Positions 1 through 19,785 of a stretch of 23,801 bases of DNA are shown in pieces. Position 1 is the stretch's first letter. Every line of letters starts with the position of its first letter. The DNA comes from a virus. A program made the translations under genes and the position numbers. The DNA is taken from the IMG/VR virus record IMGVR_UViG_3300028195_000021; one strand, given 5' to 3'. Under the pieces are notes generated by a model that did no database searches, was not told the origin of the DNA, and worked only from the letters and a program-made list of their open reading frames with translations.

Positions 1-201
1 ATCAGCATCTACAATTGCAGGCACTGGTAGATTATTAGCTTTAGCTTCTGCTTTTGCAGCTTCTCTACGTTCTTTAGCTGCATTTTTTAATCTTTCTATT
101 TCTACTTGACCATTAGCTACACTACACATCATCACTGCCAACACTCCAAAAGTAAGTAACTTAATTCCCCATTTTGTAACCTTACTTTTTAGTTCATTCA
201 T
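1..201 (-). CDS. Partial ORF (N-terminal 67 aa, runs off the window): putative secreted or membrane-anchored protein
   Basis: Not in the ORF track. Hand translation from ATG at 201: MNELKSKVTKWGIKLLTFGVLAVMMCSVANGQVEIERLKNAAKERREAAKAEAKANNLPVPAIVDAD. Preceded by TAGGAG-TATACA-ATG. Basic N-terminus plus hydrophobic stretch resembles a signal peptide. Confidence 0.8.
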   Translation of the reverse strand, partial: MNELKSKVTKWGIKLLTFGVLAVMMCSVANGQVEIERLKNAAKERREAAKAEAKANNLPVPAIVDAD

Positions 202-210
202 TGTATACTC

Positions 211-279
211 CTAACAATTACAATTTTCACAAGTGCAATTTTCACATTCACAATTTGGATTATCACATACGTTTTTCAT
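211..279 (-). CDS. 22-aa Cys-rich metallothionein-like peptide MKNVCDNPNCECENCTCENCNC
   Basis: Not in the ORF track. ATG at 279 has TAGGAG 7 nt upstream (292-287) and TAG stop at 213-211. It has 7 Cys in a C-x4-CxC-xx-CxC-xx-CxC pattern and fills the gap between two genes exactly. Confidence 0.75.
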   Translation of the reverse strand: MKNVCDNPNCECENCTCENCNC

Positions 280-289
280 TTTATTTCTC

Positions 290-1336
290 CTAAAAATAAG
301 TTCCAAATAATATACTGAAACTCTTACCTCGTTCCCCATAATCATTAACTACGGTGTTATATCCCATTGAAACACCTAAATTAAATGAGAAAGCCGTTCC
401 TAATTTCCAATCCATTGATATGGTTGGCATAAAAATAACAGGACTTCTCAGTAATAAATATCTATCTCCTGGATTATTACCTTCATAATATCTCATTAGA
501 GTATAGGCAATATAGTTAGAAAATGTAATTGTATTTCCACCCATTATCTTAAATGGAAATCTTTGTCCATATACCATCGTTAAATTTCCAAAATTATTAC
601 CACTAACTCTTCCATATGTGCCTGAAAAAACAAATGCTTCAGCATTTTTCTTTTGTAATGATTTGGCATATGAAGTAGATAATAACCAATCCCATCCCTC
701 AAATGTTTGATATGTTAAAGCACTTCCATTCAATACTACATTTTGTTTTTTGGCTTTAAACTTAAATCCTTGACCATATGTAAGAGAACCTTTTCTGAAA
801 TCATTAGTAAAATTAAAATTACCATCGTGTCTTTTTCTACCATCAAATGAAGTTGCTGTATAAACACTATTGAAAGATGTTATCCATTTTTCCTCACCTT
901 GTGTAGAACGGATAGCATAATTAACCTGCTGTGGTGTAGATGATATATCTTCTCCACCACCTTCATCCTTACTAAATTGCTCACTAACATTTTCTGCAAG
1001 TACTGAAGATAATAACTCTTCTGCAACTTTAACTGCACAAGGAAACAAATCTTCGAAATCTTGATAAACTTTTTGTGCCCAATCTTCTATAGCGTATACT
1101 GGTACATTAGTTAATGGATCATACCTTACTATTTCTAATGCCTCTTCTAAGGTAAAAAACTTAGTACGATTGTAATAAGTTACTGTGAACCCTTTATCAT
1201 TTCCTGCAATTGAATAATTACTACGAACTACAGTTTGTTGACACGGGTCTATATAAGAATAAAAAAAAGATTGGGCAGAAACACTACTCCACAATAAAAA
1301 AATTAATATTAGTTTCTGCCACATCCATTTTACCAA
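290..1336 (-). CDS. Putative outer-membrane beta-barrel protein with signal peptide
   Basis: N-terminal signal peptide (WQKLILIFLLWSSVSA-Q). The C-terminal ~200 aa show alternating aromatic/hydrophobic strand patterns and end in SFSILFGTYF, a C-terminal Phe beta-signal. The annotated start is TTG; ATG at 1324 is an alternative. Confidence 0.55.
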   Translation of the reverse strand: MVKWMWQKLILIFLLWSSVSAQSFFYSYIDPCQQTVVRSNYSIAGNDKGFTVTYYNRTKFFTLEEALEIVRYDPLTNVPVYAIEDWAQKVYQDFEDLFPCAVKVAEELLSSVLAENVSEQFSKDEGGGEDISSTPQQVNYAIRSTQGEEKWITSFNSVYTATSFDGRKRHDGNFNFTNDFRKGSLTYGQGFKFKAKKQNVVLNGSALTYQTFEGWDWLLSTSYAKSLQKKNAEAFVFSGTYGRVSGNNFGNLTMVYGQRFPFKIMGGNTITFSNYIAYTLMRYYEGNNPGDRYLLLRSPVIFMPTISMDWKLGTAFSFNLGVSMGYNTVVNDYGERGKSFSILFGTYF

Positions 1337-1992
1337 CCCCTACGGTCAATTGCTTTTATAACATTGACTACGGCTGTCTCCATAGCTTTATTTGATGCGG
1401 AACTTAAAGAAGATTGATTCCAAGCCATATTAGGATTCATAAGAAATCCTCTACCTACGGTTGAAGCTCTTCCTTGACCACTACCAACAACATACTGTGT
1501 ATTCTCATTGTTAATCAACTTAACCTGAATACCAACTATTGTTTCATTGATAGTCTCCACCTTACCAGCTTTTATTTCTTCTTTTAGATTGACAGCAAAA
1601 TCATAAATGGTTACATAACCAGAATACTTTGCCGTTGTGATTTTAGCCTTATTAGCTTTCAAATCATTTCTGATAGCTAACTGCATATCTCTGTCGGCTT
1701 CAATCATATTAAATCTACCGATATAAGATACAACGTTCTGAAGTTCTTGTGTTAGACCGAAAGCAACTCTCTTCTCTGCTAGTTCAGGATATCGTTCTTC
1801 CATATCTTTATTAGCTCTTACTTCAAGTATTTTTAATCCATCTACTTTAGTTACGACAACTTCATCCATTGATTTTTCTTTTTCATACTCACCTACATAT
1901 TGTTCTGTTTGAACGGAAGCCGCACACCCAATTATTTGGGACATTACGAATCCTAAAACAACAAACAATACAAAACGATAATTGTTTTTCAT
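1330..1992 (-). CDS. csgG: CsgG/HfaB-like outer-membrane lipoprotein
   Basis: Lipobox IIG-C at Cys23. GRFNMIE.DR, GYVTIYDF and VGIQVKLIN...VVGSGQG segments resemble the CsgG family. AGGAG RBS. Confidence 0.6.
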   Translation of the reverse strand: MKNNYRFVLFVVLGFVMSQIIGCAASVQTEQYVGEYEKEKSMDEVVVTKVDGLKILEVRANKDMEERYPELAEKRVAFGLTQELQNVVSYIGRFNMIEADRDMQLAIRNDLKANKAKITTAKYSGYVTIYDFAVNLKEEIKAGKVETINETIVGIQVKLINNENTQYVVGSGQGRASTVGRGFLMNPNMAWNQSSLSSASNKAMETAVVNVIKAIDRRGW

Positions 1993-2001
1993 TGTTATCT
2001 C

Positions 2002-2394
2002 CTATTTAAAATCTGCTAAAGGGTCTTTAAGTAGTTCTTCTAACTTCTTAATTTCTCTTTTCAAACCTTTGATTTCATTGGTTAAGTTAGCTACATCTTT
2101 ATCATAAGATTTAACTTTAGGTGTTTTTAAGTTATCAAGTTTATCACGAAGATACTTGATGTCTTCATCATATGAATCAAGTTTAGAAGTTACCAATTCT
2201 ATATCACTTGCATCTGCAAATCCTGTTACTATTTCTTCTAATCCATCAATACGACCAGTAAACGAATACCAACCTGCTATTCCTGTGGATAGAACCGTTA
2301 CAAGAGCTATGATATTTTGGATTGATAATCCAAACTTTTTATTCTTCATCTCTTCTACAGCGGATTCTGCATCCACTACTTTATTTTTCGCCAT
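2002..2394 (-). CDS. Single-pass membrane protein with C-terminal coiled coil
   Basis: Hydrophobic segment IIALVTVLSTGIAGWYSF followed by heptad-like Leu/Ile periodicity (VANLTNEIKGLKREIKKLEELL). Confidence 0.75.
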   Translation of the reverse strand: MAKNKVVDAESAVEEMKNKKFGLSIQNIIALVTVLSTGIAGWYSFTGRIDGLEEIVTGFADASDIELVTSKLDSYDEDIKYLRDKLDNLKTPKVKSYDKDVANLTNEIKGLKREIKKLEELLKDPLADFK

Positions 2395-2395
2395 T

Positions 2396-3232
2396 TTACA
2401 ACTCCAGGTTTATTGTTAATCTAATTGTGTTACTCAACGGTAACGTCTTGTCTCCATAAATATAACTCATACCAACAATATACTTGTCATATTTAAAATC
2501 TAATCCAAATGTGGGATAAGTTAATTCGTGCATATCATCCATATAATATCCAACTTTTCCCCACAACATATTTTTATAATTATAACTTGTTCCAACACCA
2601 AATGTTTGATGTTTTTCCATTTTATTAAATTGACCATAAAACATAAAATCTTTATATGGATATGTTCCAGCCACATTTACACTTGTGGGTAGTTCTGATT
2701 TATAACTACCGAACTTAGGTGCAAATCCAAAGTTACGAACCATAACATCTAAATCTAAATCTTTATACACTTTAGGAAAATAACCACCAACTCCAAATAC
2801 TAAACCGTTTGCTTTTTGAGTATGTAAGTCGTGTGTTATTAGTTTTACATCTAACCCTAAGTTATATTTACTAACCTTACGTGCATAACTAAAACCATAT
2901 ACTGCACTTAATGGTGTGAATTGTCCTTCTATAATTCCACTTTCATTTGTTTGATTTTGTTCTCCATAATTAAAGAACATAATATTAACTCCAAATGGGC
3001 CTCTATCAATATTTAAGAAATTATAACTCATATCATCTACAATATTAGTCATCCAATTTACTCTACTAAAACTGAAATGGTCTTTATCAAAAAGATTACG
3101 GGCTGGGTTCATCATTGGTAACATTACATTACCAATAGAACTTACTTGAGCAGTTGGTGCTAAGGTTAATATTCTATTTGCTTGTGCGAATATACTACTA
3201 AAAAGTAGTAATGTCAATAGTATTTTTTTCAT
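2396..3232 (-). CDS. porV: PorV/PorQ-family T9SS outer-membrane beta-barrel (shuttle-like protein)
   Basis: Signal peptide, then ILTLAPTAQVSSIGN...NPA...NWMTNIVDDM...FFNYGEQNQTNESGIIEGQFTP. These match the order and spacing of the conserved N-terminal PorV motifs as recalled (FL.I.P.AR..GMG / NPA / W...LV.D / YF..G.I..TDE.G...G.F.P). The remainder is amphipathic beta-strands. Confidence 0.75.
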   Translation of the reverse strand: MKKILLTLLLFSSIFAQANRILTLAPTAQVSSIGNVMLPMMNPARNLFDKDHFSFSRVNWMTNIVDDMSYNFLNIDRGPFGVNIMFFNYGEQNQTNESGIIEGQFTPLSAVYGFSYARKVSKYNLGLDVKLITHDLHTQKANGLVFGVGGYFPKVYKDLDLDVMVRNFGFAPKFGSYKSELPTSVNVAGTYPYKDFMFYGQFNKMEKHQTFGVGTSYNYKNMLWGKVGYYMDDMHELTYPTFGLDFKYDKYIVGMSYIYGDKTLPLSNTIRLTINLEL

Positions 3233-6003
3233 TATTTCACCACCGTAAATTTATTAGCTTTAATTCTATTATCTGTTTGCATTACAAAGATATAAACTCC
3301 TGGTTCTAATTTTTGATGATTTTCATACACACTCACATCAGGCAACCAAACCGTTGGTTCATTTGTAAAATCAAATGTATGTAATCCAGTCAACACGTGT
3401 TCATTTAAAAGTGTTCCTATTCTTTGTCCAATAGAATTTAAAATATATAATTGAACATCTTTTGGTTCATCTAAAAAGAATTGAAATTTAGTATTCTCTA
3501 TAAATGGGTTTGGATAGTTATATGTTATTGCTTCTTCATCTGGTTTTCCACCACCAAATGCCCAATACTTATTCCATACCCATACTTCACCATCACTCTT
3601 ACTCATAGTTAAGTCTCTACCTGCAGGTGTTCCAGCTGCGTGCTTACCAATAAAATTTATTGGAGCTTGTGTCCACTCAGTATCAGGAAACGCTGCTTCA
3701 AATACTAAATTTAATCCTACAATCTCTTTATCAATCCAATATCTTTCTGGTGCATTACTTGGTGAATAATCTACACCACCAAACGAAACCCTTTGCCAAT
3801 TATTTACGGGTTCGTGAACATTTACATATGTCATCCACGGGCCTGGTAAAATATCTGTTTTCATATCTATAAAATGTAATACCGTTGTATCAAACTCAAC
3901 TTCAAATTCAAAACCAGATATAAGAACTCCCGCTCTCGGTGTAATAGTTAACGGAACTTCTATCTGATTACCTGATTGAACTCTAACTGTAGAATCAGCG
4001 GGTAAAGAAAGAATAACGTCAACATTCTTAGATTTACTTAATATTCCTGGTGTATTATCTCCTATATTAATTTTTTGATTCCAGTTAGCTGGTGCATTAC
4101 CTACCGCCCCCCACCGATAATATGTTGTGGTATTAGTTTGTGTCTGATATGCATCACTACCAACTTTTGTACCTGTAGTGTTTATATCACCTGTAAAGAA
4201 ATATGATAAACTATCAATCGTGTAATCTGGATTTACATCATTTGTTACTTTATCTGCGTGCCACGTAGAAGTTCCAGCTCCAACATTATAATGTATCGTG
4301 TCTAATCCAGTTATAACATCATCCATCAATGGATTTAAAGTTTCTATAGGGTTATATGTTAAAGCTTGAGCTTGATTAAAATCTCCATCTTCAAATACTG
4401 TAAACTCATATTTTTGTAGTCTTGATTGTCCATTTAAAGTTTGATAATATCCACGAGCTGTTGGTGTTCCAGCTACGTGAAACGTATCTATTGTAGACCA
4501 ATCCTCATAAGAGTTTCCATTATGGTGTGTATAGTTATTCATTATTCCTGATACATAACTCCATAATATATAAGTGTCGTTTAACTGAAATAAATCATCT
4601 CCGTCAACATCACCAATAAAGTATTCAATAGAATTTAATGTGTCTATTCTACCACCACCACTATTATAATTGTGATGTTTACCTGATTGGAAGTTAAATG
4701 ACATTATAGCATCGGTTACATTTGTAATTTGATTTCTATCTAATTCAAGTTGAACGTGGTTTTCAATATCATCACTTGCATCAGGAGGCCAAAATGACAT
4801 TCGGTATCCATTGTTTCTTGGTAACTGTATATTATAATATCCATTAGAATCTGTATAAGTTGAATCATAATAAGATATACCAAGAAATCCCTCTGCGGGC
4901 ACTACTTGGTCTGCTATTGTTGTTTTTTTAAGATAAAAATATCCTGGAGCTCCTGATTGATAATTACCAATAACGTCATCGGTAGTATTAGTTTCTGTTG
5001 TTGTAGTAGCATCTGTAATTGATTCTATGTTATACCAATTAGAATAAGAATGTGGATTACTTTGGTCTAATTCAAATTTTATTTTCCAATATGGATATGT
5101 GTTGTCTGTTGCTGTAGTGAATGCTGCTGCAACGGCTCTACCTTTACCTTGAACATATCTTAAATAACCCTCTACATCTACTAACTTTGGATGTAATGTA
5201 ATATCACCACGGGCACCACCTATACCAACTCCATCTTGTCCTGTGTTACCATCTATATAAACTTGATATGTAGTTAGATAATTTCCATTTGTTACATAAG
5301 TATAATATCCAGTTCCAGCTAAATATTTAGTTGCTACTCTAAATGATTTAGCAGAAAAATTATCTACAACATCTTTTATTCTAAAATGTAATTTTAATAA
5401 TTCTGTTTGAGTAGAATCTCCATTACCAAATGTGTGCGTATTTCCATTATGAGAAACCATTGTGATTCTTAACCAATCATATCGAGCATCTGTAATAGAT
5501 TTTGAAGTATCTTGTGTTCCACCTGCGGCTAATGAATCAGCATATCCTACATCAGCATACCTAACAACTTCGTAAGAGTAATGTGCAGCTGCTGCACTAT
5601 CTCCTTCAGTCCAACCATTTATATATGCACCTTTCTCTACGTGGGTTGAATCGTGAGTCCAATCTATTAAATCATTATCAAATACTAAATCTAAACGAAA
5701 AGCAGTTACATCGGCATCGTTGTCATCAAGTGTAACAGCAATTGTCATTACTGAATCTCTCCAAGCATCAAAGTTATTATTCTTATACGCAACACCTCTA
5801 GTCTTACTTTTATAAGTACCGTTAGTTGGATTAGCTAAACCAGTAGTATCATCTGCTAAAAATCCTCTTAGCTTAAAATTTTCTTGTGCTCCCCACCAAT
5901 ACTTTGGTGTGTTATACTCCCTTGATTGCATAAGTCTAATTATTGGTGTCTGAGTATATACGAAACTCATCACCATCAAGAGGCTTAATAAAAATTTACG
6001 CAA
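3232..6003 (-). CDS. Secreted cohesin/dockerin-like protein with T9SS type A C-terminal sorting domain
   Basis: TTG start with GAGGAG RBS and signal peptide. Cohesin-like segment at ~5370-5755 (IAVTLD...VTAFRLDLVFD...LRITMVS...LLKLHFRIK). Dockerin-like Ca-binding motif at ~4540-4740 (VTDAIMSF...GDVDGDDLFQLNDTYILWSYVSG). Second cohesin-like segment at ~3610-3990 (IEVPLTI...ISGFEFEVEFDTTVLHF). C-terminal YNYPNPF...VQLYILNSIGQRIGTLLN...LEPGVYIFVMQT...KFTVVK is typical of T9SS CTDs. Confidence 0.8.
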   Translation of the reverse strand: MRKFLLSLLMVMSFVYTQTPIIRLMQSREYNTPKYWWGAQENFKLRGFLADDTTGLANPTNGTYKSKTRGVAYKNNNFDAWRDSVMTIAVTLDDNDADVTAFRLDLVFDNDLIDWTHDSTHVEKGAYINGWTEGDSAAAAHYSYEVVRYADVGYADSLAAGGTQDTSKSITDARYDWLRITMVSHNGNTHTFGNGDSTQTELLKLHFRIKDVVDNFSAKSFRVATKYLAGTGYYTYVTNGNYLTTYQVYIDGNTGQDGVGIGGARGDITLHPKLVDVEGYLRYVQGKGRAVAAAFTTATDNTYPYWKIKFELDQSNPHSYSNWYNIESITDATTTTETNTTDDVIGNYQSGAPGYFYLKKTTIADQVVPAEGFLGISYYDSTYTDSNGYYNIQLPRNNGYRMSFWPPDASDDIENHVQLELDRNQITNVTDAIMSFNFQSGKHHNYNSGGGRIDTLNSIEYFIGDVDGDDLFQLNDTYILWSYVSGIMNNYTHHNGNSYEDWSTIDTFHVAGTPTARGYYQTLNGQSRLQKYEFTVFEDGDFNQAQALTYNPIETLNPLMDDVITGLDTIHYNVGAGTSTWHADKVTNDVNPDYTIDSLSYFFTGDINTTGTKVGSDAYQTQTNTTTYYRWGAVGNAPANWNQKINIGDNTPGILSKSKNVDVILSLPADSTVRVQSGNQIEVPLTITPRAGVLISGFEFEVEFDTTVLHFIDMKTDILPGPWMTYVNVHEPVNNWQRVSFGGVDYSPSNAPERYWIDKEIVGLNLVFEAAFPDTEWTQAPINFIGKHAAGTPAGRDLTMSKSDGEVWVWNKYWAFGGGKPDEEAITYNYPNPFIENTKFQFFLDEPKDVQLYILNSIGQRIGTLLNEHVLTGLHTFDFTNEPTVWLPDVSVYENHQKLEPGVYIFVMQTDNRIKANKFTVVK

Positions 6004-10430: not shown

Positions 10431-13400
10431 TTAGTCATCTTTTGCAATATCCAATGTATCTGCTCCAGTATCTAATTCAGTTGTTAATTTAACATTTGCC
10501 GAATCAAAAGTAGTGGCAACATATGGATTGGTTAATACCATAGTAACTGCATCATAGACAATTTGACCACTTAAATCCTTAGAAGGTAGTGCAGTTTCTT
10601 TAGTATTTCTACATCCTACAAATTGTAATCGTTCTAATGCTAAAACATCATCCGCCTGATTTTCATAACTTGATGAATTAAACGATACTCCACTTGCACT
10701 TCCTTGTAAAAAATGTTCTTTAGTACTATAAGTAAATACTTTCTTTTTATTAAATTTAGATGTTCTCTGTTCGTCAATCATAGCAATACTTTCAGTAAAT
10801 ATTGAACTAACACCACCTTGACTCACATAACTTCCTGAAAAATCACTTCCATAACCTCTTGTCATATGTCCAAAACTCATTATTGAACCAAAATGACTTG
10901 CCTTTCTCTCTATATAATCCTCATAATATTTTAATTCGGCTAAATTATCACCACTCAATATTCCCATATATTCTATTTCATTCTCTATTACGGGATTTTC
11001 CCCATGTAATTCAAATACATCACTACCACTATTTCTCAATTTAGTTAATGTATCTTCAAATACTGGATATTCTCTAAAAGTTTTTTCTCGTGCAATTTTA
11101 TTACGTTCTAATATATTATTTTCAATCAATACACCTACGGTTGCTTTAGCTCTAGCAGGTATCAATTTCTTAACTTGACTGAAAACACTATGGTCGAAAT
11201 AATTTATTAATCTCAAATAATCCCAAAAATTATTACTTCCGTTATATTTTCTCCAATACTTATCTGCAGTTTGTTTCAATCCACCATACTTATCATAGGT
11301 TTCTCTTGCATTATCTCTTGGGTCACCTAATTTATCTTCTAAATCTAAATCTGATAAAGTAAAAATAATATCTTCATTAATAACATCAACTGGAGAGAAA
11401 TATATTCCTAATCTTTCTGAATCTTTTGTCTCTATTGAACCTACACTTTTCTCAACTCTGTATTTTGTTGATAAATTCAAACTACCTTTAAACTCATCTT
11501 TTAATTGTCGAGGTGAAATCCTTGCTTTATTTGCACTTCGTCTTATTCCACCAATTGTTGGTAATGGCATTTTCAATCTATCTACTACATTTGAATAATT
11601 GTTCTCACTTGCAAAACCTTTTGCAGACCCCGTATATGGATAATTAGAATTTGCTGCCGTATTCCTAATAGACTTCTCACTATCTGCTCCCGTTCCATGA
11701 TTTGTATCTTCATTAAAAGATAATCGTTGTACTAACTCGTTCATTGAACCTGTAAAATTGTTTCCTACAAAAGATTGTGGTGTTTCCACGTGTGTATCAA
11801 AATGTTGTTCATCTAATGGAGTACTCCACAATCTAAATTCCATCATTGAGCCACTCAATCGCATATTATCACTCGGCACTTCATGTACTGAGCCTGATAC
11901 AAATCCTCCGTGAGAAACGCCTCCGCCACCAACATATAAATCTCCATCTTGTTCCCAACTACCAGAATAAGATGCAGATGCTGCGTTTGATAAACCATCA
12001 ATAATAAGTGATTCACGAGTTTGGTATTGAATAACATCTCTACCCGCATCAAATTGTTTAGCAATCAAATCAAACTTTAATGCTCCAGTTCCTATTTGTC
12101 TTAACTCTCCTTTATCGAAATATATTGTTTGTCCGTTTGTTTCATTATCTAATCTCACACCAATAAATTTTGTTTGTGGGTGTGATATTTTTGCCCTAAC
12201 GGTATATTTTTCCCACTTAGTTCCTATTCCATATGATGCTGGATGTAATGCTCCATATCCCCAATTTTTCTTTTGAGATGGATAATATGTATAACTTTCT
12301 TCTAATATATTTCCTTTTTCACCCAACTCCATAATCCACATTTGCATATTAGCACCACCAGTTTTAGACCGTGCATAAACACTAAAATCAAATTCCTCGG
12401 CAAATGATGCGGATGCTACTCTTGCATCTCCATAAGTACTTACATTAGTACCATCATCATTATTTGTAAATGGATAAGTGTATGCCTCTCCACTTGACTT
12501 TGTATTTTTAAATCCTAAACTATAAAGACCATCAAAAATATAAGAACTTTGTGAAACAACTTCTAATGTTCCACCATCTCCTACCGATTCAAATGGTGTT
12601 TGTAAACTTCCTGTTTCAAAATTGTATGAACCTGTTACCATTCCTACAGAACCAGAATGTATTCTTGTAGAGAATATCTCATCATTAACCAATTCTTTCC
12701 GTAACATCACCGACCAATAATCACCATTAAAAAATGGTAGTGCAGAACTTGTAACTTCTTTAATTTCTTCAGCTGGTGCACCAGATGCCTGAGAGCCACT
12801 AAGTGAAAATACTATGGAGGCCATATTATCTACTGAACCATTATCTTTTAAATGTATTCCCCATCCAGCTTCACGGGAGCCTCTATCCATATGAACCAAC
12901 TGCATATTAGAACTTGATACTGCCTTAAATCTAAACTCAACTGTCTTTGGTTTCATACCAGTATCGGTAGAATCCTTCCACTTTGTATGAACATATTGCG
13001 ATGTTTTAAAATCTAACGCCTTTGAAAATCTACGAACTGCTTCATAGTTGGGATTAACTTCATTTTTAGTTGGGCCACCATATTCTCTTACTCGTAATAT
13101 TGTAGATGGAATACCATAACAAGTTATCAATCCTTTTAATGCCTTTAACGTTCCTTTAGCCTTTAAAAACAATGGCATATTTGTTAATATTCGTTTCCAT
13201 ACTTCCTTACTAACATCTCCCAATGGTACTGATGAAGAGGATGTTATAGTATTATCTTGAGCAACTAATTTACCAGTTGTATATTCATCTAATTGTACTA
13301 AATCATAACCATCATATAATTGCCAACCAAGAGATTTAGCTATCGTAGAAGCTAACTGTTTAGGTAATCCTTTAGTTAATGATTCTTCTCTATCATAAAT

Positions 13401-15926
13401 TGAGGGTAATTCATCAATATAATTTTTAATGTTATCAAAATGTTGTCCTAACATTTTTACTAATCTTAAAAATACTTCATTTTCACTATCTCGTGATATA
13501 TGTTCAGGCATATGATAAATTAAATAATCTCTATTATAATAATCATAATTTGATGCACTTACTTTTTGATTTTCATACCAAGTATCTGCTACAGATTGTG
13601 TTGAATGATATAGAACATATGGTTTTGAAGTATTCTGTTTGGGCCAAGTAGCATCAAAATGCATTCCAAAACTACTTGTGGTAAAAGAAGCACTTTCATA
13701 ATAAAGATATTTCTCATACCCATCAAAATTATTCTTTAATTCATCTATTTGTAATTCTAATGAATCTAATTTTTGTTGAGAACCAGTCACTACCGTGTTA
13801 GGATCATTTCCTAATGCTCCCGAGCCTGTATATAATCCACTAATAGAAGAACTTTCTTGTTCGTATCCTTCAAGTTTTTCTAACTTATATTTAAAATTTG
13901 ATAATCTTTTTTCAGCTGAACTAAAATGTACAAAATTATCATACTCCGAATAATCAACATTTAATTCTGTTTCATTTATACTACCACTAATTACTTTATT
14001 TATAATATCCCTATAAAGAGAACTACTTTGAAAAGATAATTCTGACCAATTTTTATATTCAGTTGTGACTGGCTGTATTTGTTCTGATACTCCATCCGAA
14101 GTAGGGGGCAATAATATAGTTGAGGGTAATGGAGTCTCTATCCAAGGAATTAACTCTACACCAAAACTCTTATTAGGTATTACTTCTTCTACTATTTGAC
14201 AAGTACTTCCTATATTATATCGTTCTGGTAACGGTTGATATAATTTTAAAATTCCTGCGTGTCCGCCATTTTTATTATTAACTATTAAACTTCTATAACC
14301 ATCCCTAAAATACATATATGTTCTAAGATTACTCACAGTAGATTTATTTGTTATAAAAAACATTGGTCTATCTATATAAACTGTATCACTGGTTGGTGCT
14401 TCGAATAAAAATAAACCATTTCTTTTAGCGTAGTCTTTTGGTGTTTCTTCTAATACTATTCTATTAAGAAACTCTCCGTCATAACTAACACTTGAAATTT
14501 TTCCTGTATAATCAGCGTATCTTTTTACTTCTTCAAAAGTTGTTACTGTGTCTTGTCTTGCTTGTAAATCTCCTAAATTATAATCATCCGTCATATAAAA
14601 ATAACCTGCTAAATCATTTACAGTACCATCTAAAGCACCCCAATCACTAATATAATTCCCAATCTGGGTTTCTGTTATAGTACTAGCGGCACTTGCTAAG
14701 ATACCATAATCATCCCAATTCATAGTCAGACCATTAATATCTTTAAATTTTCTTAATACGTCTCTATTTTTAATCCACCACTCTTGAGCCCTATTATGAT
14801 ATTCTACCTCTACGGAGTTATCATGATCCCTTGCTTCGTGCTGCAATTCTTCCCACATATCAATGATAGGAGTTATATGGTTCTGTTGAATTGCCTGTTT
14901 TAAAGACATTCCAACAATCAACACATTACTTAAAAACTCCCCTGATGCATCTTGTTGTAATACACCAAGATTAGGAAGCCAAGAATCTGCAGCTCCATCA
15001 TATATCCATTGTGCCAAATCACTAATTGTTCCTGTTTGAGATCCCACGGGTGGTATGAGTGGTCTTGCCTCTACTTCAGTTTTCGTTACAATTTCTGTCT
15101 TTGGTACTTGTTCAACGGTGGTAACAAACATATCTCGTAATATAACATTGGTAGTTCCTTCAACATAAAATTTATCAAATTGTTCTCGTGTAACTACGTT
15201 GGTGGGGGAAGCCGTACCAAACTCTATAGAATTATCGCCGTGTGCTATTTGTCCAGACCTTACTCCTATTCCAGATGTACCAAAATTTTGTTCTGTTATT
15301 AGGTCTATATCGTCTATCTTAAGTGAGTTTGGGCTTTGAGTTCTTAAATAATATGTATAAGTTGGATTAAATAATAAATCTGTTTCTTCTAAATACTTTT
15401 CATTAGTAATATCTACATTGGGTGATATAATAACTTCATCTCGTAACGTTGAGATATTATTAATTTCTAATCCTGCATCAACCGAACCCAATATGGTGGT
15501 CTCATCTAACACATCCTTATATATATTACCATCTTCTGTAGTTGTAGTGGGGCCAGAATAAAATTCACCGCTTAGATCAATTGAACGAGCACCTGGTAAT
15601 CCACTTTTTCTTCTTAAAAATTCATATTGTACATTATAAGTTCCTTGATCGAATCCAAGTGTTCTTAAATGATTACCAATATTAAAGATAACTTTACCGT
15701 CTGAATCTAAATCAAATGCAGTAGATTTAAATGTTTGTGATAATAAAATCTCTGTACCACCAGAATCTATAACTTTAATTATTGCAAAATCATTTAAAAT
15801 CGGTTGGCCACCTACTATAAGTAAATCTGTAACAGAAGTACCAAATCCAGTAGTGTTAGTTCCACCCGATGTGACTTTACCTTGAGATAAATTTTGAAGA
15901 TCTTCTTGTAATAAAATACTTGACAT
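10431..15926 (-). CDS. Large baseplate wedge/tail protein (T4 gp7 or P2 gpI-like) with LamG-like and carbohydrate-binding-like domains
   Basis: LFLKAKGTLKALKGLITCYGIP motif (~13100-13170) typical of gpI/gp7-like wedge proteins. LamG-like KTVEFRFK...DLYVGG...LSGSMMEFRLWSTPL. Downstream of gp25 and gp6. Confidence 0.6.
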   Translation of the reverse strand: MSSILLQEDLQNLSQGKVTSGGTNTTGFGTSVTDLLIVGGQPILNDFAIIKVIDSGGTEILLSQTFKSTAFDLDSDGKVIFNIGNHLRTLGFDQGTYNVQYEFLRRKSGLPGARSIDLSGEFYSGPTTTTEDGNIYKDVLDETTILGSVDAGLEINNISTLRDEVIISPNVDITNEKYLEETDLLFNPTYTYYLRTQSPNSLKIDDIDLITEQNFGTSGIGVRSGQIAHGDNSIEFGTASPTNVVTREQFDKFYVEGTTNVILRDMFVTTVEQVPKTEIVTKTEVEARPLIPPVGSQTGTISDLAQWIYDGAADSWLPNLGVLQQDASGEFLSNVLIVGMSLKQAIQQNHITPIIDMWEELQHEARDHDNSVEVEYHNRAQEWWIKNRDVLRKFKDINGLTMNWDDYGILASAASTITETQIGNYISDWGALDGTVNDLAGYFYMTDDYNLGDLQARQDTVTTFEEVKRYADYTGKISSVSYDGEFLNRIVLEETPKDYAKRNGLFLFEAPTSDTVYIDRPMFFITNKSTVSNLRTYMYFRDGYRSLIVNNKNGGHAGILKLYQPLPERYNIGSTCQIVEEVIPNKSFGVELIPWIETPLPSTILLPPTSDGVSEQIQPVTTEYKNWSELSFQSSSLYRDIINKVISGSINETELNVDYSEYDNFVHFSSAEKRLSNFKYKLEKLEGYEQESSSISGLYTGSGALGNDPNTVVTGSQQKLDSLELQIDELKNNFDGYEKYLYYESASFTTSSFGMHFDATWPKQNTSKPYVLYHSTQSVADTWYENQKVSASNYDYYNRDYLIYHMPEHISRDSENEVFLRLVKMLGQHFDNIKNYIDELPSIYDREESLTKGLPKQLASTIAKSLGWQLYDGYDLVQLDEYTTGKLVAQDNTITSSSSVPLGDVSKEVWKRILTNMPLFLKAKGTLKALKGLITCYGIPSTILRVREYGGPTKNEVNPNYEAVRRFSKALDFKTSQYVHTKWKDSTDTGMKPKTVEFRFKAVSSSNMQLVHMDRGSREAGWGIHLKDNGSVDNMASIVFSLSGSQASGAPAEEIKEVTSSALPFFNGDYWSVMLRKELVNDEIFSTRIHSGSVGMVTGSYNFETGSLQTPFESVGDGGTLEVVSQSSYIFDGLYSLGFKNTKSSGEAYTYPFTNNDDGTNVSTYGDARVASASFAEEFDFSVYARSKTGGANMQMWIMELGEKGNILEESYTYYPSQKKNWGYGALHPASYGIGTKWEKYTVRAKISHPQTKFIGVRLDNETNGQTIYFDKGELRQIGTGALKFDLIAKQFDAGRDVIQYQTRESLIIDGLSNAASASYSGSWEQDGDLYVGGGGVSHGGFVSGSVHEVPSDNMRLSGSMMEFRLWSTPLDEQHFDTHVETPQSFVGNNFTGSMNELVQRLSFNEDTNHGTGADSEKSIRNTAANSNYPYTGSAKGFASENNYSNVVDRLKMPLPTIGGIRRSANKARISPRQLKDEFKGSLNLSTKYRVEKSVGSIETKDSERLGIYFSPVDVINEDIIFTLSDLDLEDKLGDPRDNARETYDKYGGLKQTADKYWRKYNGSNNFWDYLRLINYFDHSVFSQVKKLIPARAKATVGVLIENNILERNKIAREKTFREYPVFEDTLTKLRNSGSDVFELHGENPVIENEIEYMGILSGDNLAELKYYEDYIERKASHFGSIMSFGHMTRGYGSDFSGSYVSQGGVSSIFTESIAMIDEQRTSKFNKKKVFTYSTKEHFLQGSASGVSFNSSSYENQADDVLALERLQFVGCRNTKETALPSKDLSGQIVYDAVTMVLTNPYVATTFDSANVKLTTELDTGADTLDIAKDD

Positions 15927-19377: not shown

Positions 19378-19785
19378 TTACTCTCCTGTCTCGTAGGTTA
19401 AAGAAACTTCTTCACCACTTGTTAAATCATTTTTTAAACTAAAATTTACATCAACATTCAATCTATTATCAATTTGTTCAATAACCGTTTCATTAACGGA
19501 TATATATGGTAGCCAAATATCAACCGCCTCTTTAATCATTTCTTCAACTCTATCAGGTATATCTGTACCTATGTTTTCAAATATCAACGTATGTATATCG
19601 CATCCAAATTCTGGATGAGCCAATCTCTCACCTTTCATAGTTAATAAAAGATTTTTTAAATTATGTTTAGCTTGTTCCAAGGTAGTTTTAGTTTTTCTAA
19701 AAATACCATCATTAGCAAATCCCAATGGAAATGCTAAACCTATAAAGGTATCTGGATCTTGGTCTTTTTCTCTTGAACTCCCCAT
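19378..19785 (-). CDS. gp25: Baseplate wedge subunit, GPW/gp25 family
   Basis: NLKNLLLTMKGERLAHPEFGCDIHTLIFE...IKEAVDIWLPYI signature, immediately upstream of gp6. Confidence 0.92.
   Translation of the reverse strand: MGSSREKDQDPDTFIGLAFPLGFANDGIFRKTKTTLEQAKHNLKNLLLTMKGERLAHPEFGCDIHTLIFENIGTDIPDRVEEMIKEAVDIWLPYISVNETVIEQIDNRLNVDVNFSLKNDLTSGEEVSLTYETGE

Follow-up and report, generated by a model that had tools for sequence, protein, structure and literature searches.

The question raised by this locus is whether a reading frame of only 22 codons, seven of them for cysteine, is a gene and, if so, what its product might do for the phage that carries it. The window (the whole stretch of DNA analysed here, 23.8 kb) is part of a 26,960-base IMG/VR virus record with a CheckV completeness of 15%. 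Its GC content is 29-38% per 1-kb segment, and its gene-like open reading frames (ORFs) of at least 80 amino acids all lie on the minus strand. The features on which the analysis turns are the following.

279..211, minus strand: the micro-gene, 22 codons plus TAG (ATG 279..277, TAG 213..211)
291..287, minus strand: AGGAG ribosome site of the micro-gene, overlapping the upstream TAG at 292..290, with a 7-nt spacer to the ATG
212..208, minus strand: AGGAG ribosome site of the downstream gene, overlapping the micro-gene TAG at 213..211, with a 6-nt spacer to the ATG at 201..199
220..256, minus strand: 15-nt tandem repeat in 2.5 copies, coding for the E-N-C-x-C unit
1336..290, minus strand: upstream gene for a 348-residue protein with a signal peptide, a terminal Phe and the look of an outer-membrane protein; it serves as the synteny anchor
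1..201, minus strand: 5' part of the downstream gene, with 67 codons in the window and 212 residues in the full record (L104); its product has an N-terminal hydrophobic segment
17469-19376, minus strand: baseplate J gene
19378-19785, minus strand: baseplate gp25/W gene

The cysteines of the encoded peptide are spaced C-x4-C-x-C-x2-C-x-C-x2-C-x-C, with three C-x-C pairs and one single residue making up the 7 Cys (32% of the sequence), and there is no aromatic residue, no histidine and no hydrophobic N-terminus. This is the composition by which the metallothionein class is recognized (low mass, ∼15-35% Cys in C-x-C or C-x-x-C, few aromatics). An earlier note, made from the letters of this DNA, had described a 22-residue, seven-Cys ORF with three C-x-C motifs, without aromatics or signal peptide, and every one of these sequence claims was found to be correct when re-read. 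The same is true of the TAGGAG site that it placed over the upstream stop, of the overlap between the micro-gene stop and the next ribosome site, and of the internal E-N-C-x-C duplication, which corresponds to the 15-nt tandem repeat at 220-256. The copy number of this unit differs in frame among relatives, from 2 to 4. A longer reading of 44 residues from an upstream ATG (211..345) was rejected: it lacks a ribosome site and overlaps the 348-residue gene, of which its N-terminal part is only an out-of-frame reading. A plus-strand ORF of 30 residues (201-293) lies antisense in a window whose plausible genes are all on the minus strand.

The micro-gene stands at the far end of a gene string, after a run of signal-peptide proteins. 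The nearest cultured relatives of the baseplate J protein are from large myoviruses, namely Microcystis phage Mel-JY01 (43% identity) and the Flavobacterium 'immuto' phages (38%). Downstream of the tail and baseplate genes, positions 290-6003 (minus strand) hold the genes for signal-peptide proteins, which include the 348-residue and a 278-residue protein that are both outer-membrane-protein-like, a 220-residue lipoprotein, a 130-residue membrane-anchored coiled coil with a sub-threshold match to DUF2730, and a 923-residue protein with a cohesin domain. This module is kept as a whole in related phage contigs. Between the baseplate genes and the envelope-protein module lies an ORF of 1,831 codons (10431-15926, minus strand) with no Pfam or PHROGs match. 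The 348-residue protein likewise belongs to no Pfam or PHROGs family, and none of the genes of the module could be assigned to a secretion system with either collection. Among GenBank phages, no match was found to the DNA of window positions 1-3300, to the 923-residue protein or to the neighbour proteins of two other phage subgroups that carry related micro-genes.

Whether the 22 codons make up a gene was judged from relatives. The upstream 348-residue gene is common to 14 viral loci at 58-84% identity, of which only L002 carries the micro-ORF, lengthened there by one E-N-C-x-C unit. Nine further syntenic loci with the micro-ORF came from scanning metagenomes for the N-terminal half of the conserved 18-residue module (C-x-N-P-x-C-x-C-E-N-C-x-C-E-N-C-x-C). 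The start arrangement TAGGAG-spacer-ATG is present in 11 of 11 syntenic loci, and also in several other contexts, and the overlap of stop and ribosome site (TAG-GAG or TAG-GGG) in 10 of the 11. When the nine distinct syntenic copies are compared in pairs, the 13 Cys, Asn, Pro and Glu positions in the core of 18 residues differ 42 times synonymously and never non-synonymously; for the five of them that were not forced by any search pattern the figures are 16 and none. The five x positions of the core are free to vary (pN 0.24). The overall pN/pS is 0.18; such values are sums over non-independent pairs, although the contrast is still clear. Other phage subfamilies gave pN/pS values of 0.05 to 0.34, and a value of 1.12 from one subgroup with length differences is meaningless and was set aside. 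The module recurs in Actinobacteria of 69-70% GC: the window peptide and that of a 69%-GC actinomycete locus (L129) are identical at 16 of 18 residues, and 14 of the 16 codons concerned differ synonymously. Since the core Cys, Asn, Pro and Glu positions change only synonymously and the module is kept in 69-70%-GC Actinobacteria, selection acts on the peptide and not on a DNA repeat. The earlier note had proposed to look for conservation of the ORF and its Cys spacing with synonymous variation, and exactly this is seen, in syntenic and non-syntenic relatives alike. Judged from these comparisons, the 22-codon ORF is a genuine, conserved coding micro-gene that gene finders have skipped. That the region is instead non-coding, a 15-nt tandem repeat or RNA element with one frame open by accident, is extremely improbable. 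The repeat is indeed present and the composition simple, but frame, start, stop and ribosome site are conserved, the conserved positions change only synonymously, the peptide is kept at 32% as well as at 69-70% GC, and changes in repeat number are always in frame. Nor is an RNA element predicted. The fold has a z score of 0.32, Rfam gives no match, a terminator is absent, and for promoter-like sites the value is lower than the mean of shuffled sequences.

The micro-gene has come and gone at this site. When the junction is aligned with that of three close relatives (L001, L003 and L004), the micro-ORF and the second ribosome site together form one clean indel. In the tree of the 348-residue protein, L002, which has the ORF, is sister to L004, which does not (100/99 support), and the window groups with L001 and L003, both without the micro-ORF. 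This pattern of presence and absence therefore requires several gains or losses at one site, and the unit lies between TAGGAG direct repeats, through which it could be lost precisely. In more distant relatives a Cys micro-ORF is found at a different junction, between homologues of the 278-residue and 130-residue genes (L018, L024, L025, L058, L061, L354 and L361; L020 ends before the second gene), and in L030, L042 and L049 it follows yet other genes. The copy in L099 lies between two genes unrelated to those flanking the window copy, and yet the two copies differ at 6 of 69 bases. We interpret the locus as an accessory region with a turnover of small genes, located downstream of the tail genes. 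By this distribution the micro-gene behaves as a self-contained accessory cassette of ribosome site and ORF that enters and leaves at gene junctions. The junction pattern is not taken as evidence that the peptide works jointly with the neighbouring envelope proteins. The earlier note's description of the peptide as embedded in a secretion operon was an overstatement, given that the neighbours could not be assigned to a secretion system and that the cassette is missing in the three close relatives and occurs in at least 18 unrelated phage contexts.

The family to which the peptide belongs is large. A degenerate DNA pattern for C-E-N-C-x-C-E-N-C matched 89 viral contigs, where about one would be expected by chance according to our own arithmetic. 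Tight, ATG-started ORFs of 17-55 residues accounted for 80 of the ∼90 frames and encode 38 distinct peptides with 6-10 Cys and a mean composition of 25% Cys, 2% aromatic residues and 0.7% His; a generic Cys-periodic DNA pattern, used as a control, returned mostly simple repeats without a start codon. In the phage loci the start lies -10 to +20 nt from the upstream stop in 74 of 77 cases, in 70 of 73 the next start follows at -10 to +30 nt, and half have a Shine-Dalgarno-like motif. These loci fall into at least 18 context groups with unrelated neighbours. In the largest group (29 loci) the ORF and all 8 of its Cys are kept between the same two genes, with the flanking protein down to 42% identity, and pN/pS is 0.34 after removal of forced codons. 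An alignment of 23 phage and bacterial sequences has 10 invariant columns (C, N, C, C, E, N, C, C, C, C), and the window peptide aligns over its full length and carries the family module. We define the N-P-type seven-Cys family here as C-x-N-P-x-C-x-C-E-N-C-x-C followed by further C-x-C pairs, in an ORF of ∼19-65 residues. Viral and genome loci hold 45 such modules, and a metagenome scan gave at least 120 loci, with ATG-started ORFs of 19-65 residues in ∼115 of 121 frames among the matches listed; in the searches behind these relatives, 8 or 9 of the 18 module residues were fixed in advance.

Related motifs were also seen in much larger proteins. Eight loci (L016, L019, L031, L037, L050, L062, L090 and L092) encode near-identical proteins, mostly of 624-633 residues, with a run of E-N-C-x-C; they are encoded on long viral contigs, among them one with the label GVMAG (giant virus), and their context is unrelated to that of the phage micro-genes. 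Three further proteins, P0005 (645 residues), P0014 and P0019, have 3-11 tandem copies of a C-G-N-P-S-C-K-C-P-x-C-E-C-G-type module ahead of an apparent ThiF/MoeB-type adenylyltransferase domain, and one of these proteins is from a 1.4-Mb contig.

Annotation resources are almost blind to the family. A profile search of 1.84 billion representative proteins gave only 36 matches, none of them named, and none of the 36 was present or named in a 15-billion-protein collection, from which all 10 bacterial copies were also missing. In a large protein collection a 50-residue actinobacterial relative had no match and a 40-residue phage relative had four, all unnamed. PHROGs, Pfam and NCBIfam hold no family for these peptides: Pfam gave no match for the window peptide or nine relatives at E values up to 10, PF02069 included, and NCBIfam gave none for the window peptide, NF038108 included. 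Searches of GenBank phages by tblastn with the 22-residue peptide and the 40-residue relative returned no match, for which low-complexity masking is the probable cause. Against all PDB chains of at least 20 residues, a profile of 23 members retrieved only a scorpion toxin (E value of 0.19), and a 59-residue bacterial relative retrieved a snail Cd-metallothionein at a non-significant E value of 1. A literature search, which included the literal motifs, found no phage metallothionein and no description of the family. By sequence, then, this is a new, very short, phage-borne thionein-like family that stands outside every described one, although some of the similarity within it may be convergent, the peptides being compositionally simple.

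The bacterial relatives, which share the N-terminal module, provide the functional context. In Actinobacteria and related metagenome contigs the micro-gene lies directly downstream of a gene for a P1B-ATPase with HMA and E1-E2 domains (L119, L286 and L289); the order CopZ-CopA-micro-gene is found in L293/L294, and in L131 the micro-gene adjoins CopZ and an ATPase. Genes for SCO1/SenC, CtaG or DUF5134 proteins are beside it in L119 and L295, and in a Parafilimonas genome and two metagenome contigs (L116, L374 and L391) it is located between cation-efflux and heavy-metal-binding-domain genes. Overall, a P1B-ATPase or CopZ is beside the micro-gene in at least five bacterial loci, and a P1B-ATPase is within 1 kb in 4 of ∼10 actinobacterial loci, which by our own estimate is far above the figure for a random gene. 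A CsoR-family repressor gene immediately follows the micro-gene in L306, L312, L334, L338, L359, L388, L404 and L411, that is, in 8 of 8 loci of the subtype with 49-65 residues (PDB 4m1p, E value of 2e-17). In at least 12 soil loci (L321-L387) the micro-gene is preceded by the gene for an AraC-type regulator with an N-terminal M-V-C-x-R-C, for example at L349:1131-1835 on the minus strand. This regulator has ∼190 residues and always comes before a micro-protein of 35-41 residues, and the two look like a dedicated, possibly metal-responsive, regulator-target pair. In gene order, these bacterial neighbourhoods are what one classically finds around a thionein that responds to copper or other metals. 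No P1B-ATPase is present in the stretches fetched for the 120 metagenome loci listed, and the ATPase link is therefore specific to some lineages. Beside the phage copies no metal genes were recognized: their neighbours either lack annotation or have nothing to do with metals. In most of the bacterial copper-linked forms the sequence runs on as C-G-x-x-C-x-C, while in the phage forms E-N-C-x-C is repeated, and because the C-terminal continuations differ the bacterial and phage functions could have diverged.

Fungal copper metallothioneins of the Neurospora crassa type consist of ∼25 residues with 7 Cys and bind a Cu(I) cluster, and to our knowledge they are the smallest metallothioneins described. 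The phage peptide shares with them the seven Cys, a comparable length, the C-x-C pairs, the lack of aromatics and the cytoplasmic location. It differs from them in Cys spacing and intervening residues, in being acidic (rich in E, N and D) and built on a five-residue repeat, and in being even shorter, with members of 17 to 22 residues. The PDB profile search gave no sequence match to this type, but the set may not include such a chain. With the β-domain of vertebrate metallothionein the phage peptide shares the periodic C-x-C-x-x-C-x-C-x-x-C and an N-terminal D/N-P-N-C-x-C; that domain, however, has nine Cys and is part of a two-domain protein of ∼60 residues, and no homology between the two is detectable. 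By analogy, the closest known systems would be the fungal seven-Cys copper thioneins in size and Cys count, and the vertebrate β-domain in spacing. Among prokaryotic proteins, SmtA has 53-56 residues, a zinc-finger-like fold and His ligands, and the control of mycobacterial MymT by a copper sensor has its counterpart here in the relatives linked to CsoR and CopA. MymT detoxifies copper (PMC7387436). The family described here resembles SmtA/BmtA (PF02069) and MymT in being prokaryotic, small and Cys-rich; unlike them, it has its own signature, C-x-N-P-x-C-x-C-E-N-C, and no Pfam or NCBIfam match.

We propose that the 22-residue product, which is predicted to be translated, would be a cytoplasmic, acidic, thiolate-rich peptide that most likely wraps a small metal-thiolate cluster, as minimal metallothioneins or metallochaperones do. 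The metal would most likely be Cu(I), with Zn(II) or Cd(II) as possible alternatives. Expression would be from a late operon by way of the strong ribosome site of the micro-gene, with translational coupling on both sides, and during infection the peptide would buffer, sequester or hand on soft metal ions. The phage might thereby gain protection from copper, or hoard zinc for its own metalloproteins; supply of metal to tail-fibre or baseplate assembly and disturbance of host metal sensing are other possible gains. Metal binding by the phage peptide, the identity of the metal and the benefit to the phage are inferred from the relatives and the composition. A metal-thiolate peptide is the best reading because of the metal neighbourhoods of the bacterial relatives together with the Cys-rich, aromatic- and His-poor composition. 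The earlier note had favoured a metallothionein or metal chaperone over a leader peptide or a ribosomally synthesized, modified peptide (RiPP), and the location of bacterial homologues in copper and heavy-metal loci supports that preference, although by sequence the peptide belongs to no described metallothionein family. All considered, a minimal metallothionein or metallochaperone micro-gene, carried as an accessory cassette and with a role in soft-metal handling during infection, is the probable interpretation.

A different reading of the bacterial neighbourhoods is that, rather than storing metal, the peptide binds another protein as a small ligand stabilised by zinc or redox chemistry. It might, for example, modulate a host regulator that senses metal or stress; the phage copy would then imitate a host micro-protein and in this way interfere with a host response. 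Such a role would fit the flavobacterial relatives with 11 Cys and 33-36 residues (L138:3515-3613, L145:524-625, L134:2810-2914, L153:2238-2336 and L117:2465-2572, all minus strand), which in five Flavobacteriaceae genomes lie directly upstream of a gene for an ECF sigma-70 factor with a Cys-rich C-terminal tail (C-C ... C-x-x-C), as well as the pairing of micro-proteins with the M-V-C-x-R-C AraC-type regulator in at least 12 soil loci and with CsoR in eight. Signal peptides ending in A-Q or S-A-Q are of the Bacteroidota type, and a Bacteroidota host would agree with such endings in the phage proteins and with the Flavobacterium-phage relatives of the J protein (38%). We nevertheless regard a regulator ligand as improbable. 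A metallothionein gene beside its own metal sensor is ordinary and requires no contact between the proteins, at three of the five flavobacterial loci a hairpin and T-run lie between the micro-gene and the sigma gene, and the flavobacterial form differs in its N-terminal half. The tail of the flavobacterial sigma factor is reminiscent of metal-sensing sigma factors of the CorE/SigZ type, and the gene upstream of the 11-Cys micro-ORF varies between genomes. Quite improbable, too, is a thiol redox or iron-sulfur role, be it as a sacrificial reductant, as a sink for peroxide or electrophiles, or as a carrier or scaffold helper in Fe-S assembly. The motif C-E-N-C-x-C-E-N-C does occur as a C-terminal tail on an IscU/NifU-like scaffold (L146 and L147) and a 4Fe-4S ferredoxin (L123) and inside a rhodanese-like protein (L379 and L384), a glutaredoxin-like gene is near one phage subgroup (6 loci), and P0016 follows a gene for a pyridine-nucleotide disulfide oxidoreductase. 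The tail fusions are few, however, their host proteins were named by eye and motif only, and it is with copper export and sensing, not with Fe-S genes, that the closest bacterial homologues are associated. By the same means the motif was seen at the N-terminus of GrpE (L115 and L133). In the glutaredoxin-adjacent phage subgroup (L296, L317, L319, L327, L348 and L366) the glutaredoxin-like gene (C-x-x-C) is within 2.5 kb and the micro-protein continues C-D-P-C-x-C ... N-P-C-G-C.

Polycysteine leader ORFs are known in mycobacteria, and with this precedent the 7 Cys codons out of 22 might gate the ribosome according to cysteine supply, with the overlap of stop and ribosome site relaying the effect to the downstream gene. 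The overlap with the next AGGAG in 10 of 11 syntenic loci and the short gap to the next start in 70 of 73 phage cases are what such a device would need, but tight spacing is ordinary in phage operons, the same downstream gene is present in close relatives that lack the ORF, and the downstream genes vary over at least 18 contexts and are not genes of sulfur metabolism. Furthermore, N, P and E are kept as strictly as Cys across phyla, which the counting of codons would not require, and neither a terminator nor a stable RNA fold (z = 0.32) is present, so that a Cys-sensing leader or coupling ORF is very unlikely. Processing of the peptide into a thioether- or thioamide-containing or copper-chelating RiPP is highly unlikely as well. 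The short, Cys-rich core would suit it, and the actinobacterial relative L114 has a weak match to a Cys-every-fifth model (E value of 0.41, 10.6 bits against a cut-off of 30). Yet there is no leader-like region, since many members have 0 to 4 residues before the first Cys, and no enzyme is common to the contexts. No radical-SAM, YcaO, lanthionine or MbnB-type gene was recognized among the window genes scanned or beside the bacterial relatives; the scan of the window genes, which brought up no maturase-type family, bears out what the earlier note had said of the absence of a modifying enzyme.

A bolder version of the metallothionein reading would have the cassette, a ribosome site with 17-27 codons, hopping among the gene junctions of marine phages by ribosome-site microhomology, its product being the shortest natural metallothionein and serving to reset host copper or zinc or to jam CsoR or the Cys-tailed ECF sigma factors. 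As a whole this remains speculative and rather doubtful. If it were true, metal handling would be a widespread phage trait that has been overlooked because it lies below gene-calling cut-offs.

Eukaryotes are well known to have metallothionein-type peptides, but studies of bacterial ones are few. By 2020, SmtA and MymT were the only bacterial metallothioneins with an investigated biological function (PMC7387436). The micro-gene belongs to a large, cross-phylum family of peptides of 17-65 residues that is invisible to annotation; ocean phages carry it as an accessory gene, and its bacterial members appear to be wired into copper export and sensing. If the phage peptide does bind metal, it would be the shortest natural thionein, and trace-metal handling would join the auxiliary functions of phages in metal-poor or copper-stressed seawater. 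The presence or absence of the cassette would then be a natural polymorphism that could be compared with ocean metal data.
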